DNA of 64,000 bases from Escherichia phage Turkey5. The stretch is taken from the sequence record PQ471516.1, one strand, 5' to 3'. The position numbers and the translations under genes are program-made. Positions 58,521-62,668 of the stretch are shown piece by piece. Positions within the stretch are counted from its first letter, which is position 1; the number at the start of each line of letters is the position of its first letter. The notes under the pieces were generated by a model, which worked only from the letters and a program-made list of their open reading frames with translations, ran no database searches and had not been told where the DNA came from.

Positions 58521-58766
58521 ATGAACAATTTAACAGATCACTACCAAGAACTTAGTCAAAGTACTAAGAACTATATGAGCTACATGAACGCAGAAGATTT
58601 CGCAGTCTTCCTCGGAAAATTCTGTGCAATCAATACCCTCCAAAAAAGTACCAGTACTACAAGTGTACTTATGTTGAATTGCTTTATAGAGAACATTCTG
58701 GATGAACTTCAAAGCCCAAACGAAAGTAAACGATTCATGAACCTTTTGTTACTGGCATCTATATGA
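58521..58766 (+). CDS. hypothetical protein (first gene of small-protein array, divergent)
   Basis: ORF track; SD AAGGAGAAATGT. Confidence 0.55.
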   Translation: MNNLTDHYQELSQSTKNYMSYMNAEDFAVFLGKFCAINTLQKSTSTTSVLMLNCFIENILDELQSPNESKRFMNLLLLASI

Positions 58767-58972
58767 CTCAAGAACAAATTATGCAGTATTACCTATGTGC
58801 TATATCAAAAGAACATCTGAATAGCATAGGGCATCAACAAATTATACTTGCAAATGCGAAACGTTCGGCACTTCTGCTTAACTCCATCAGAAATAACCTC
58901 ATAAGGAATTTTCTGGAAGGTAACGAATCTATGCAGTACTATTTCATCTTAACACTACTAATCGAGTACTAA
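58763..58972 (+). CDS. small protein, YY-family array member
   Basis: N-terminal ..EQIMQYY, C-terminal LTLLIEY. Confidence 0.55.
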   Translation: MTQEQIMQYYLCAISKEHLNSIGHQQIILANAKRSALLLNSIRNNLIRNFLEGNESMQYYFILTLLIEY

Positions 58973-59176
58973 ATGAATAAAGAACAAATATTTCAGTACT
59001 ACAACAGTTCTCTGTCAAAAGGTCTACAGGAAAGTATAGCAGTTGAGTCTGCAATACTACATAACCTTAATGCAGTAGAATTCACAAACCGAATCACAAG
59101 GCACGCACAAAATGCTTTACAAGGACATGAAACCTTGAGATACTATCACATCATCGTGCTTTGTATGGAGGTATAA
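58973..59176 (+). CDS. small protein, YY-family array member
   Basis: N-terminal ..EQIFQYY, C-terminal IIVLCMEV. Confidence 0.55.
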   Translation: MNKEQIFQYYNSSLSKGLQESIAVESAILHNLNAVEFTNRITRHAQNALQGHETLRYYHIIVLCMEV

Positions 59177-59184
59177 CAGAACAA

Positions 59185-59376
59185 ATGAATCCAGAACATC
59201 TAGAGTACTACAAGACATTCATGAACCACAAGGATCAGTACAGTTACAATACTGCAATGGGGCATTTCCGTTATCATTCCAATAAAATGCAAAAGCACAC
59301 ACTAACACTATGGACTGTACAAGCACAACGAGACGAACTACGATTGTGTGCTATAATTAAAATCCTGAACATCTAA
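59185..59376 (+). CDS. small protein, YY-family array member
   Basis: Trimmed to MNPEHLEYYKTF; track start 59161 overlaps upstream gene. Confidence 0.5.
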   Translation: MNPEHLEYYKTFMNHKDQYSYNTAMGHFRYHSNKMQKHTLTLWTVQAQRDELRLCAIIKILNI

Positions 59377-59384
59377 GGAACACT

Positions 59385-59576
59385 ATGTACGAGCACAAAG
59401 AACAGTACTTAAACACTCTACCTAAAGATATACAAAGATCATTCCCTTGTGCTCCGTGGGATTTAAACAGTAAATGGGGTTTTATTGAGTTCTATAACGA
59501 TGTATGTATTGTACTGGAAAGTAAGTCCCTCTCAATGCAGTACTGTTCAATCTTGAACCTAATTTTTAAGTACTAA
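59385..59576 (+). CDS. small protein, YY-family array member
   Basis: MYEHKEQYLNTLP..NLIFKY. Confidence 0.6.
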   Translation: MYEHKEQYLNTLPKDIQRSFPCAPWDLNSKWGFIEFYNDVCIVLESKSLSMQYCSILNLIFKY

Positions 59577-59769
59577 AACTATGCAAACATTCTATACAGA
59601 TAGACTAAGCCTTAGAGATACTTTTATGTACGAAACCTTTGTTAAGTACTATAACTTAGGTACGCATACTACAAAGAATATTAATTTACATCACTGCACA
59701 CACTCAGCAGTACATGACCACGATCCGTACAGATACATCTTAGCCCTTTTAAGTATATAAGGAACACTA

Positions 59770-60444
59770 ATGAGACTCAATAATTACAGTAAACAATACC
59801 TAAAGCATTTTAAGTACCTCAAAAGCATACAGGCTGAATCTATTAGCAGCAGCTACGTTTACAGCCCTAATGTACTAAAACAATTAAAGTACAAGAAAGA
59901 AAAATTATCAAAGAACCTCAAAAAGTTTCTTAAGCACAAAGACGCAAAGATTCAGTACTTGAACATTAAAAACGATCATGCAGTACTAAGCCTCAATACA
60001 AGTCTTAAGAATCTGGATAACTCTTCATTTATGCTTGAGTTCAATATCAATGAAAATACTCCAGCAGTTTTTACTATTGCGTATAATAAAGCACAAATCT
60101 TTTTAGGTGCAAAAACCGCACTTAAACTCAGTAAAGCACAATTCTGTTTAGGTGATCAGTACTACGTAGGTATTGTACACATAGAACTCGAAAAAGATAT
60201 GTACTTCGGTAGTACCCACGATAATCCAGAACATAAAGATACTATTGACTTCTTCAGGAATCTCCCTAAAGAGTATTCAGAAGATGAAATGTTCCAGTGG
60301 AGTACTATTATTAAAGACCCACATCTTTGCTACGAAGTGTATAAGAAAGTACAAGGGATTAAACAAATGATTAAAGAAAATAAAAAAATGTACCAACTCT
60401 TGCAGTTCTTAACCGGAGAAAATCTAATTGTTCAAAGACCATAA
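59770..60444 (+). CDS. hypothetical protein, FQxS family (embedded in small-protein array)
   Basis: C-terminal EDEMFQWSTII motif. Confidence 0.6.
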   Translation: MRLNNYSKQYLKHFKYLKSIQAESISSSYVYSPNVLKQLKYKKEKLSKNLKKFLKHKDAKIQYLNIKNDHAVLSLNTSLKNLDNSSFMLEFNINENTPAVFTIAYNKAQIFLGAKTALKLSKAQFCLGDQYYVGIVHIELEKDMYFGSTHDNPEHKDTIDFFRNLPKEYSEDEMFQWSTIIKDPHLCYEVYKKVQGIKQMIKENKKMYQLLQFLTGENLIVQRP

Positions 60445-60622
60445 AGAGTACTACAGAAATCAACTCCCAAAGGAATGGCAAATAACATTAGAAACTAACC
60501 TAGCACAGATATATACCCAGAAGTTTCTTGCTATGACATGGGAGCACTGCATTGAGTCAGTACTGAATTCTTCAAATGAATCACAATATCTCAATACTCT
60601 TTTACTTGTATATAAATTCTAA
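60428..60622 (+). CDS. small protein, YY-family array member (TTG start)
   Basis: MFKDHKEYYRNQLP..LLVYKF; start overlaps end of upstream gene. Confidence 0.45.
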   Translation: MFKDHKEYYRNQLPKEWQITLETNLAQIYTQKFLAMTWEHCIESVLNSSNESQYLNTLLLVYKF

Positions 60623-60635
60623 AAAGGAATAACAA

Positions 60636-60842
60636 ATGCAATTCCATGAACATATGGAGTACTACAGAAAACAACTACCAGAACCTTTATCGATGATAAT
60701 CGGTTCCAGAAGTTTAATAAGTAATCCCAATTTTCATATGCGTAGTCACTATAAATGTACTGCTTCAATTTGTAATGGAACTGCTTACAATGAACCGAAC
60801 CAGCATCTATACCAAATCCTTAAACTAATATATCAGTACTAA
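60636..60842 (+). CDS. small protein, YY-family array member
   Basis: MQFHEHMEYYRKQLP..KLIYQY. Confidence 0.6.
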   Translation: MQFHEHMEYYRKQLPEPLSMIIGSRSLISNPNFHMRSHYKCTASICNGTAYNEPNQHLYQILKLIYQY

Positions 60843-60845
60843 ATC

Positions 60846-61223: not shown

Positions 61224-61406
61224 ATGCAAGAACACCTGGAGTACTACAGAAGCCATCTCCCAAAGAAGGCACAAAGAAACTTCGACCAACAATATATAAA
61301 CCAAAAGAATCAGTTCTATAATGCATTCTATTCGTCTATGAAAACTATTGCTATACAAGGCAAAGACCCGTACTATAGCATCCTGAACATCATCTTCAAG
61401 TACTAA
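61224..61406 (+). CDS. small protein, YY-family array member
   Basis: MQEHLEYYRSHLP..NIIFKY. Confidence 0.6.
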   Translation: MQEHLEYYRSHLPKKAQRNFDQQYINQKNQFYNAFYSSMKTIAIQGKDPYYSILNIIFKY

Positions 61407-61409
61407 ATT

Positions 61410-61595
61410 ATGTACAGAGACTTCTATATAAGTAAACTTAATCCTGTACTACAAACTCGTATTCCTCCGGTGAAATTTATCCTCAAAACAAAAGCACAAA
61501 TGTATGAGTTCAAAAAGTGTACAAAAGAAATACTCAGTACTAAAAGTAATAAGAACATATACTATCAAGTACTCGTCCTGACATTTAAGTACTAA
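61410..61595 (+). CDS. small protein, YY-family array member
   Basis: MYRDFYISKLNP..VLTFKY. Confidence 0.6.
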   Translation: MYRDFYISKLNPVLQTRIPPVKFILKTKAQMYEFKKCTKEILSTKSNKNIYYQVLVLTFKY

Positions 61596-61615
61596 AGTAC
61601 TAAAGGAATAAACAT

Positions 61616-61810
61616 ATGCAACACCAGCACAAATTGTACTATACACAATTTCTTAATCAACAACTACAACAATTTATACCCAATGAACCATTACCATATG
61701 ATCACCCCCTAGGTACACGCGTTTTCAAAAGAACTATTAATGAACTATTGAGTACTACCGACGACGATTCCCTGTACTACTGCTTAATTAAACTTATATA
61801 CAGGCACTAA
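61616..61810 (+). CDS. small protein, YY-family array member
   Basis: MQHQHKLYYTQFL..KLIYRH. Confidence 0.6.
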   Translation: MQHQHKLYYTQFLNQQLQQFIPNEPLPYDHPLGTRVFKRTINELLSTTDDDSLYYCLIKLIYRH

Positions 61811-61811
61811 T

Positions 61812-62006
61812 ATGCAACTCCTGCACAGAGAATACTACACACAATTCCTTAAAGAGAACTACAGAGATTCAGTTCCCGTAACTCCTTTCGACCCAAATAA
61901 CCCAAGTTCAATCTTCCTCTTTAATGACGCAACACGTACTGCACTCTGTACTACCAATAAACATTGGCACTACGCATTTGTACTTATACTTATATACAGA
62001 CACTAA
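61812..62006 (+). CDS. small protein, YY-family array member
   Basis: MQLLHREYYTQFL..LILIYRH. Confidence 0.6.
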   Translation: MQLLHREYYTQFLKENYRDSVPVTPFDPNNPSSIFLFNDATRTALCTTNKHWHYAFVLILIYRH

Positions 62007-62015
62007 GGCACTAAC

Positions 62016-62204
62016 ATGAATGAGCACAGAGAGTACTACATAAAGAAACTTCAATTGTACCAACAATCCTCTATACCTGAAGTTCCTTATAATATAAATG
62101 AGCACATTGGAGTAAAGATTAACTATAATAATACAGTACTAGAAATATTAAGTGCGGAAAATATAGATTACTACAATATTATAAAACTAATATATAGGTA
62201 CTAA
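62016..62204 (+). CDS. small protein, YY-family array member
   Basis: MNEHREYYIKKLQ..KLIYRY. Confidence 0.6.
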   Translation: MNEHREYYIKKLQLYQQSSIPEVPYNINEHIGVKINYNNTVLEILSAENIDYYNIIKLIYRY

Positions 62205-62207
62205 ATC

Positions 62208-62393
62208 ATGCAAGAGCACAGAGAGTACTACATAAAGAAACTTCACCCAGACCTACGAGATACTATACCATTCGTTCCTCATAATATAAATGAACCTGTA
62301 GTGCAGTACTACTTTAATATAACAGTACAAGCCGCATTAAGTGAATATAGACTTGAGTACTTCACTGTACTGAAACTTATATATAAGTACTAA
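62208..62393 (+). CDS. small protein, YY-family array member
   Basis: MQEHREYYIKKLH..KLIYKY; near-duplicate N-terminus of the upstream gene. Confidence 0.6.
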   Translation: MQEHREYYIKKLHPDLRDTIPFVPHNINEPVVQYYFNITVQAALSEYRLEYFTVLKLIYKY

Positions 62394-62458
62394 CATATTG
62401 ACATAGAGTACAGGAATGATATACTACATCCTATACAGAATCAATACAGAGATAACAT

Positions 62459-62668
62459 ATGCAAGAACATAAAGATTTCTATGTAAGCCAACTCCCCGTA
62501 CTAGACCAATTCTGGTTAGCTGATTCTACACCTTGTAATACAGATACTAAGTACGGACAACTGTGCTTTATTGAATCTATAAAGAAAGTACTACACCAAG
62601 ATAAAACTAAGTACTGTAAAGAAAAAGACTTGTACTTTAATATAGTAGAACTTACCTTTATGTTCTAG
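62459..62668 (+). CDS. small protein, YY-family array member
   Basis: MQEHKDFYVSQLP..ELTFMF. Confidence 0.55.
   Translation: MQEHKDFYVSQLPVLDQFWLADSTPCNTDTKYGQLCFIESIKKVLHQDKTKYCKEKDLYFNIVELTFMF

Follow-up and report, generated by a model that had tools for sequence, protein, structure and literature searches.

A tandem array of genes for small, predicted helical proteins in Escherichia phage Turkey5 and related jumbo phages

Organisation of the array

We analysed a stretch of 64,000 nt from Escherichia phage Turkey5 (PQ471516.1; hereafter the window), in which a tandem array of genes for very small proteins occupies positions 58521-62668 of the plus strand (Table 1). The region is 96% identical to that of Escherichia phage vB_EcoM_JNE01 (Asteriusvirus, 355 kb; hereafter JNE01). 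The block comprises 17 small open reading frames (ORFs) of 59-81 aa and one ORF of 224 aa. The original prediction, made from the letters alone, had counted about 16 small genes separated by 3-15 nt; the tandem array and its tight packing with overlaps are borne out, but the small ORFs number 17, besides the 224-aa ORF, and the spacing is wider. The intergene gaps are, in order, -4, 0, 8, 8, 4, 9, -17, 13, 3, 3, 3, 3, 20, 1, 9, 3 and 65 nt, so that all of them lie between -17 and +20 nt except the one before the last gene. The distance from stop to start is 0-4 nt at 8 of the 17 junctions, the genes overlap at two further junctions, and six of the nine junctions among the ten successive genes from 60428 to 62393 leave only 1-3 nt. 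Most copies share their termini, as had been proposed: the N-terminal consensus M-x-(E)-H-K-E-Y-Y-x-x-x-L-P is found in its strict form in 11 of the 17 small ORFs and as a looser [YF]YxxxL in 15, and 12 end in the C-terminal motif [LI][ITAV][YFL][KRQM][YHF]. The larger gene that had been placed within the block, a member of a family with a C-terminal FQxS-type motif, is also real.

Table 1. Features of the small-gene array and its surroundings, in window coordinates
Feature	Position	Strand	Remarks
Sigma70-type promoter TTGACA-17-TAGAAT	58469-58497	+	11/12 consensus; in the only sizeable intergenic gap
Shine-Dalgarno AAGGAG of first gene	58509-58514	+	Read from sequence; invariant in 7 genomes
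First gene, 81 aa	58521-58766	+	Heads every array (clusters 1/26); dN/dS 0.22 vs JNE01
Family member, 69 aa	58763-58972	+	jackhmmer/HMM E 1e-18
Family member, 67 aa	58973-59176	+	HMM E 6e-5 (core-only model), 7e-20 (full model)
Divergent sub-family B member, 63 aa	59185-59376	+	hhalign of sub-family B profile; dN/dS 0.09
Family member, 63 aa	59385-59576	+	HMM E 5e-27
Divergent sub-family B member, 59 aa	59581-59760	+	hhalign
224-aa gene, other multigene family (FQxS motif)	59770-60444	+	phrog_29152 match
Family members, ten in succession	60428-62393	+	HMM E 1e-20 to 1e-26
First five of the ten	60428-60622 (TTG start), 60636-60842, 60846-61037, 61041-61220, 61224-61406	+	
Last five of the ten	61410-61595, 61616-61810, 61812-62006, 62016-62204, 62208-62393	+	
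Second sigma70-type promoter candidate TTGACA-16-TATACT, with TG	62398-62425	+	11/12 match; before last gene
Last family member, 69 aa	62459-62668	+	HMM E 2.7e-10, from a model built without it
Conserved, possibly structured element, ~95 nt	62697-62791	+	Directly 3' of the array; in ~30 Asteriusvirus genomes, annotated in none
Outlying family member, 69 aa	42486-42695	+	HMM E 1e-4 rising to 5e-11; directly 3' of the 217-aa FQxS-family gene 41831-42484
FQxS-motif ORFs	1072-7903, 21024-21326, 26264-26884, 41831-42484, 59770-60444	+	C-terminal motif

Relatedness and predicted structure of the small proteins

Pairwise phmmer comparisons connect 11 array members, from which we built a family hidden Markov model (HMM); all 965 six-frame segments of the window were then screened with it. 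The HMM recovered its 11 members together with the last gene 62459, 58973 and an outlier at 42486-42695, and jackhmmer over the same segments added 58763 alone, which brings the total for the two methods to 14 array ORFs and the outlier. ORFs 59185 and 59581 were missed by direct search, and a profile built from their orthologues aligns with the family from end to end (hhalign probability 95%, E 2e-8). The first ORF, 58521, aligns with the family at an hhalign probability of 18% and over 15 C-terminal columns only. The similarity found with phmmer, the HMM, jackhmmer and hhalign is far beyond chance and indicates that 16 of the 17 small ORFs form one superfamily of paralogues, in which membership of 58521 is not demonstrable.

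The same protein family corresponds to phrog_11711 (hypothetical proteins of 121Q/PBECO4-type phages, with no function or description), which is matched by 12 of the 17 window ORFs at E<=0.01 (best E 1.5e-17). The outlier 42486 and the last gene also match it, and its model misses 58763, 58973 and the divergent 59185 and 59581. Word-indexed and exhaustive protein searches returned array-type sequences only. Searches of the small family gave chance-level matches at most in Pfam and NCBIfam, two chance-level matches only among the PADLOC defence-protein profiles (E 0.01-0.02), none at E<=1 in a PDB sequence profile search and, with the family model in Foldseek against the PDB, a best E of 5.6. 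Tandem Repeats Finder did not detect the array at the DNA level because the copies are too diverged.

AlphaFold2 (AF2), run on a 15-member alignment, produced an all-helical model of 61 residues, the best at a predicted local distance difference test (pLDDT) score of 90, with helices at residues 2-11, 14-17, 30-46 and 49-60 and a loop at residues 18-29. An independent BFVD model of a 121Q family member, the sole viral match, has the same fold (TM-score 0.63). About 20 columns are conserved and most of them are hydrophobic or aromatic (Y8, L12, F35, T/I39, L/I43 and the C-terminal helix YYxILxLIY(R/K)Y). The variable positions comprise most of residues 18-29, a stretch that includes conserved prolines, the rest of the 30-46 helix and the link that follows it. 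The conserved positions would form a core in which the N- and C-terminal helices pack together, leaving the variable residues surface-exposed. Of the constant ends and variable middle described in the original prediction, a constant framework with a variable remainder holds, but the 'termini' are mainly the hydrophobic positions of a helical fold, presumably its core. Isoelectric points (pI) range from 4.8 to 9.9 and most members are near neutral, with D+E about equal to K+R. One cysteine is semi-conserved (32 of 65 sequences), and three window members have no cysteine at all. Inspection by eye reveals neither a signal peptide nor a membrane-spanning segment in the small proteins (no predictor was run); they are predicted to be cytoplasmic as well as all-helical.

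Other identities were considered for these proteins and rejected. A DNA-mimic anti-restriction protein of the Ocr/ArdA type would have a strongly acidic surface, at odds with the range of pI, and a zinc-ribbon or zinc-finger mini-protein would have a conserved set of four Cys/His ligands, which is absent. Membrane or secreted proteins are likewise rejected given the polar N-terminus and, judged by eye in place of a predictor, the lack of a hydrophobic stretch of about 20 residues. The C-terminal aromatic-x-aromatic resembles the tails of outer-membrane proteins or DegS-activating tails, a likeness dismissed for want of a signal peptide and of the motif itself in sub-family B.

Selection on the array genes

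Pooled array genes differ from their JNE01 orthologues by 0.083 synonymous substitutions per synonymous site (dS) and 0.022 nonsynonymous substitutions per nonsynonymous site (dN), a dN/dS of 0.27, and several of them differ by synonymous changes alone. Computed by column over 56 allele pairs of 55-99% identity, which are not independent of one another, dN/dS is 0.27 at the 20 conserved columns versus 0.55 at 43 variable columns. These ratios show that the ORFs are real genes, each copy being held by purifying selection on its protein and the variable part being under weaker constraint.

Distribution and turnover

In each of the nine genomes compared (the window, JNE01, A4, PBECO4, 121Q, G17, Salmonella phage SD-2_S15, phAPEC6 and fEgEco12), the array has a syntenic position and 14-19 family copies. 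The shared layout along the plus strand begins with opposite-strand RCC1-like paralogues, a conserved intergenic region of 100 nt and 6-10 small genes, and continues with a gene of ~223 aa, 9-11 further small genes and ~2 kb of unannotated DNA. A tblastn search with one member matched 34 phage records, all of them Escherichia or Salmonella jumbo phages of 310-386 kb, and among 1.84 billion representative proteins, scanned exhaustively with HMMER, there were only 25 matches, all of 59-69 aa and of the array type. The small family is therefore confined to Asteriusvirus as far as HMMER can see. Deposited annotations of the array are incomplete: PBECO4 (4893-8943) carries 6 annotated ORFs and phAPEC6 (1721-5943) carries 9, where 16-17 family ORFs are detectable. 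Proteomic searches based on those annotations are therefore blind to most members, and comparative counts are affected as well.

Clustering at >=55% identity across seven genomes gave 40 clusters, of which 3 are common to the window/JNE01 lineage and the others; 59581 belongs to one of these only three clusters shared with the 121Q group. One cluster is present twice in PBECO4 and in SD-2, and the gene order differs in A4. The C-terminal half of 58763 is nearly identical to a gene of phage A4 and its N-terminal half is different, so the gene is a mosaic. JNE01 lacks exactly one gene unit of 192 nt, equivalent to 62016-62204. The 5' ends of 62016 and 62208 have 32 identical nucleotides in common, and the deletion junction lies within these, which marks the event as one of unequal homologous recombination. 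The cassette at 60846-61037 is an island of divergence from JNE01 (protein 65% identical, dS 0.31, dN 0.20) between flanks that are 97-100% identical, and we read it as a probable allele replacement bounded by the gene's own ends. These rearrangements indicate that the content of the array turns over through homologous recombination between conserved gene ends. The flanks are far better conserved than the array: compared with 121Q, the RCC1-like gene 56099 is 83% identical at the protein level and the downstream non-coding DNA 82% at the nucleotide level, versus only 40% for the 224-aa gene. The diversifying family of the original prediction is thus upheld as regards rapid diversification (the number of clusters, loss, replacement and shuffled order) but not as regards positive selection, given the dN/dS ratios of both the core and the variable columns.

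Nucleotide-level conservation of the gene ends

In one set of array genes all nine terminal tyrosines are encoded by TAC, the codon of 36% of tyrosines elsewhere in the window. The codon before it always ends in G (AAG, AGG, CAG or GAG), with use of the rare AGG; elsewhere in the window AAG encodes 34% of lysines and AGG 8% of arginines. The stop codon is TAA, usually followed by AT(C/T)ATG, which gives an overall pattern of RG-TAC-TAA and then ATG. Identical junctions of 24-27 nt, e.g., CTAATATATAGGTACTAAATCATGCA, are shared by non-adjacent copies whose middles are saturated with changes. Judged by these codon choices, the conservation of the C-terminus is partly at the nucleotide level. Possible causes are a role of AGG/AAG as a weak ribosome-binding site (RBS) 8 nt before the next start, coupled termination and re-initiation, use in recombination, or a spill into the array of the AGTACT bias described below. 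At the other end, the N-terminal E-Y-Y is mostly encoded by GAA TAC TAC in the 121Q lineage, free of the GTAC motif, so that here it is the protein sequence that is conserved.

The window contains 210 copies of the palindrome AGTACT against about 22 expected from base composition (9.6-fold), most densely at 58000-64000. Enrichment is also about 10-fold for CAGTAC and GTACTG, and no tetramer ranks above GTAC. Copies of AGTACT fall in the three codon frames 70, 47 and 41 times, and 52 of the 210 are intergenic; its presence in all three frames and between genes points therefore to a bias at the DNA level. The palindrome is 2-3 times denser in the array than in the rest of the window, itself already enriched, and is 16-25-fold enriched at the corresponding loci of seven relatives. 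We found no paper in the literature that explains this enrichment.

Expression signals

The region of the promoter at 58469-58497 is 88% conserved over seven Asteriusvirus genomes, with TTGACA invariant, despite the divergence of the coding array. This promoter, predicted as the single one before the block, is confirmed by its match and its conservation but is not alone, a second match of equal quality preceding the last gene. Inside the array there is no other plus-strand promoter match of at least 10/12 and no terminator-like site. RBS-like GGA/AGG lies 7-10 nt before most array starts, and each gene may well be translationally coupled to the next. PA5oct, a related phage with mostly uncharacterised early genes, is dependent on the RNA polymerase of its host (PMC7318152). 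The array, by analogy, is probably transcribed early by the host enzyme from the conserved sigma70-type promoter. Mass spectrometry of the phAPEC6 virion identified 62 proteins, including the RCC1-like gp549 and gp551 and a protein of 4.7 kDa (PMC7247149). None of the annotated array genes gp540c-548c is among them (PMC7247149), a result weakened by several unannotated copies that were not searchable there.

The embedded gene and the neighbourhood of the array

The 224-aa-type gene occupies the same position inside every array. Its PHROG has no known function, Pfam contains no match, searches retrieved just 3 homologues, and hhalign finds it unrelated to the small family; its AF2 model, at a pLDDT of 44, is unusable. 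The FQxS family comprises at least 11 window ORFs of ~100-224 aa with a C-terminal FQxS-type motif, in most of them within the context EE.(Y/F)FQxS(T/L)(V/I). The 217-aa (41831-42484) and 224-aa proteins give a colinear but weak alignment, and the genes 41831 and 59770 are each followed immediately by a member of the small family.

Upstream of the array, 13 tandem paralogues with RCC1 repeats (beta-propeller; 264-447 aa) occupy 42724-58420 of the minus strand, one of them apparently split or frameshifted at 45359-46550. Their divergence between lineages is very uneven, 56099 being the best-conserved example quoted above and 57218 being only ~30% identical to its best 121Q match. Further upstream, about nine tightly packed ORFs of 102-125 aa at 38680-41846 (plus strand) may be another tandem family; the two that were scanned match phrog_19046 and phrog_26405, neither with known function. 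Six tRNA genes are located at 219-4443 (Gly-TCC, Ser-TGA, Ser-GCT, Asn-GTT and two adjacent Thr-TGT).

Downstream, in the element at 62697-62791, RNAalifold predicts an outer stem whose pairing is preserved by compensatory changes (GGGG/CCCC for the 121Q group, AGAT/ATCT here). Rfam matched nothing over 58000-64000, this element included. The element may act as RNA, as a structure at the 3' end of the operon, or as DNA, as a site related to packaging close to the boundary of the terminal repeat. The terminus of fEgEco12 has been determined experimentally, with a direct terminal repeat of 20,993 bp (PMC13070987). Base 1 of fEgEco12 aligns to window position 62983; this puts the boundary of the direct terminal repeat 315 nt beyond the end of the array, and 62983-64000 probably represents the first part of the repeat. 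At 62987-63003, ~4 nt inside the inferred physical end, lies a GC-rich hairpin, GGCAGAGGAAGTCTGCC. In the ~1 kb at 62670-63700, which is 82-86% identical to 121Q and fEgEco12, no ORF is convincing and 21 GTAC sites occur, mostly (C/T)AGTACTGA. A perfect 12/12 sigma70 promoter within it, at 63320-63347, has a spacer that contains AGTACTG; further on, at 63768-63840, lies a degenerate tandem repeat of 16/24 nt, GGCTAGATGGCTAGAT.

Possible roles of the array

The reading that we favour, tentatively and at a little below an even chance, is that the block is an 18-gene operon transcribed early by the host RNA polymerase and encoding a diversified repertoire of binders for host takeover or counter-defence. 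The paralogues would form a panel of small binders that share one scaffold, each aimed at a different host or competitor protein, and phage lineages would re-assort this panel through cassette exchange. Several points weigh against a binder repertoire. The small proteins resemble no characterised inhibitor, defence, anti-defence or host-takeover protein by sequence or by fold, and the inhibitors or decoys suggested in the original prediction stay a conjecture. At the variable columns dN/dS stays below 1, so that positive selection is not demonstrated and relaxed constraint would give the same picture. The remaining four of the five AF2 models reach a pLDDT of only 71-76, and the packing of the helices is deduced from secondary structure and conservation rather than from contacts or model coordinates. 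The partly nucleotide-level conservation of the gene ends might reflect functions other than those of the protein. Promoter-like matches across the region number 28 versus 30 in shuffled sequences, no enrichment, and the call at 58469-58497 therefore rests on match quality, position and conservation. Finally, the case for early transcription, for translation and for any binding partner is indirect, as is that for the function.

A more specific proposal, which we regard as doubtful, is that the array works as a system for exchanging cassettes: its conserved coding ends and AGTACT-containing stop/start junctions would be maintained in nucleotide sequence as recombination sites, with which co-infecting Asteriusviruses would delete, duplicate and swap binder cassettes of ~190 nt. 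One early promoter by the genome terminus would then serve a re-assortable, population-level repertoire for counter-defence or host takeover, and the array, if this were true, would be to phages what terminal multigene families or antigenic-variation loci are to larger pathogens.

Alternatively, the paralogues could act on the phage's own programme, forming hetero-oligomers through the hydrophobic C-terminal helix or modulating a common machine such as RNA polymerase or a protease, with variable parts that tune activity. Eight of 11 positions in this helix are hydrophobic or aromatic, more than would be expected to be buried in a monomeric bundle, which suggests a shared interface; all copies are probably co-transcribed, and the 224-aa gene, always embedded at the same place, could be a common partner. 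This remains unlikely, as the quick replacement of single copies between close relatives ill fits a stoichiometric complex and the array persists in Salmonella phage SD-2_S15, where the 224-aa-type gene is truncated to 137 aa. It is quite unlikely that the small proteins serve the 13 neighbouring RCC1-like propellers rather than host targets, as chaperones, assembly adaptors or partners, each matching one or a few variants. The small genes have a sigma70-type promoter whereas the propellers are virion proteins and presumably late, the array genes were not detected in the phAPEC6 virion, and the two arrays do not diverge together: the RCC1-like orthologue 56099 is well conserved across lineages between which few small genes can still be matched at 55% identity. 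What speaks for such a partnership is that both arrays adjoin, divergent around the one conserved 100-nt intergenic region, that their copy numbers are of like order (13 propellers versus 17+1 small genes), that the two family members following an FQxS gene bracket the RCC1 block (at 42486 and 60428), and that gp549 and gp551 are found in the phAPEC6 virion.

The array might also persist mainly by properties of its DNA or RNA (recombinogenic AGTACT junctions, overlapping RBS and stop signals, proximity to the terminus), as neutral or selfish cassettes whose individual proteins have little function. The codon choices at the junctions (terminal TAC, a G-ending preceding codon, rare AGG), the identical junctions in non-adjacent copies, the local density of AGTACT and the location of the observed breakpoints at these repeats would all fit. 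We consider this explanation very unlikely, because a dN/dS of 0.27 with many synonymous changes indicates selection on protein sequences, the conserved columns have the hydrophobic or aromatic character expected of a folded core, the N-terminal E-Y-Y of 121Q is encoded independently of GTAC, and the array is retained in all 34 genomes matched. The least probable of the alternatives, in our judgement highly improbable, is that of packaged proteins, internal to the virion and ejected, in which the N-terminus would target the capsid and the variable body would be an injected effector, as in the internal-protein loci of T-even phages. Tandem genes with a constant N-terminal decapeptide and a variable body would suit such a role, the composition of the phAPEC6 inner body is unknown, and the M-x-E-H-K-E-Y-Y of the array is loosely reminiscent of the T4 capsid-targeting sequence MKTYQEFIAE. 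The array products gp540c-548c are, however, missing from the 62 virion proteins of phAPEC6, although a protein as small as 4.7 kDa could be detected there; a conserved (L/I)xE cleavage motif is lacking, conservation is just as strong at the C-terminus, and the promoter is of the early sigma70 type, not of a late type.

The block represents ~5% of the window ORFs, in phages most of whose genes have no known function. If the proteins do constitute a binder panel, each of them, at ~60 residues, is a candidate inhibitor of a different Escherichia coli or Salmonella protein or defence system, and proteins of this size are simple to synthesise and screen.

Comparison with known systems

We found no account of the array, its architecture, its turnover or its restriction to one genus in the Asteriusvirus and jumbo-phage literature. 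The closest described phenomenon is that of the hyperplastic regions of T4-type phages, and the closest architectural analogy is provided by the terminal multigene families of large eukaryotic DNA viruses. In T4-type hyperplastic regions, small early ORFs whose function is unknown undergo modular shuffling mediated by cassettes consisting of a promoter plus a stem-loop (PeSL) (PMC2839356, PMC4122927). Both systems are clusters of small ORFs in which close relatives differ by insertion, deletion and replacement, with breakpoints in short repeats that flank the ORFs, as in the JNE01 deletion and the 60846 cassette. The T4 repeats are intergenic promoter-plus-stem-loop cassettes and the ORFs between them are mutually unrelated, whereas the array has no such cassette with each ORF; its repeats are the coding ends of the paralogues of one family, and its promoter lies upstream.

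The MGF110, MGF360 and MGF505 multigene families (MGF) of African swine fever virus (ASFV) and the terminal families of poxviruses are tandem paralogues with proposed roles in host range or immune evasion. Like them, the array consists of tandem paralogues near a terminal-repeat boundary (315 nt away), varies in copy number (14-19) by unequal recombination and diverges fast compared with a conserved core. It differs in belonging to a bacteriophage, in encoding only proteins of ~60 aa and in having no sequence or fold relationship to these families. The internal proteins (IP) of T-even phages, which are packaged and cleaved at an (L/I)xE site, also come from small genes in tandem, combine a constant N-terminal peptide with a variable body and differ between related phages; the array departs from these loci in the features already weighed above, namely the absence of a conserved (L/I)xE, the conservation of the C-terminus as well, and the lack of any member seen in the phAPEC6 virion proteome.

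Bacillus jumbo phage G exhibits a lineage-specific expansion of ~35 zinc-ribbon proteins (PMC7824862). There, as here, a very small protein whose role is unknown has expanded in one jumbo-phage lineage, but the array proteins have no conserved Cys/His set and a different fold, and their copies form one tight tandem operon. The array is a clear example of a phage that builds and re-assorts a multigene family with its own conserved gene ends as recombination substrates: a large and experimentally tractable orphan family with an unusual, cassette-like evolution, kin to the lineage-specific expansions and hyperplastic early regions of other phages.

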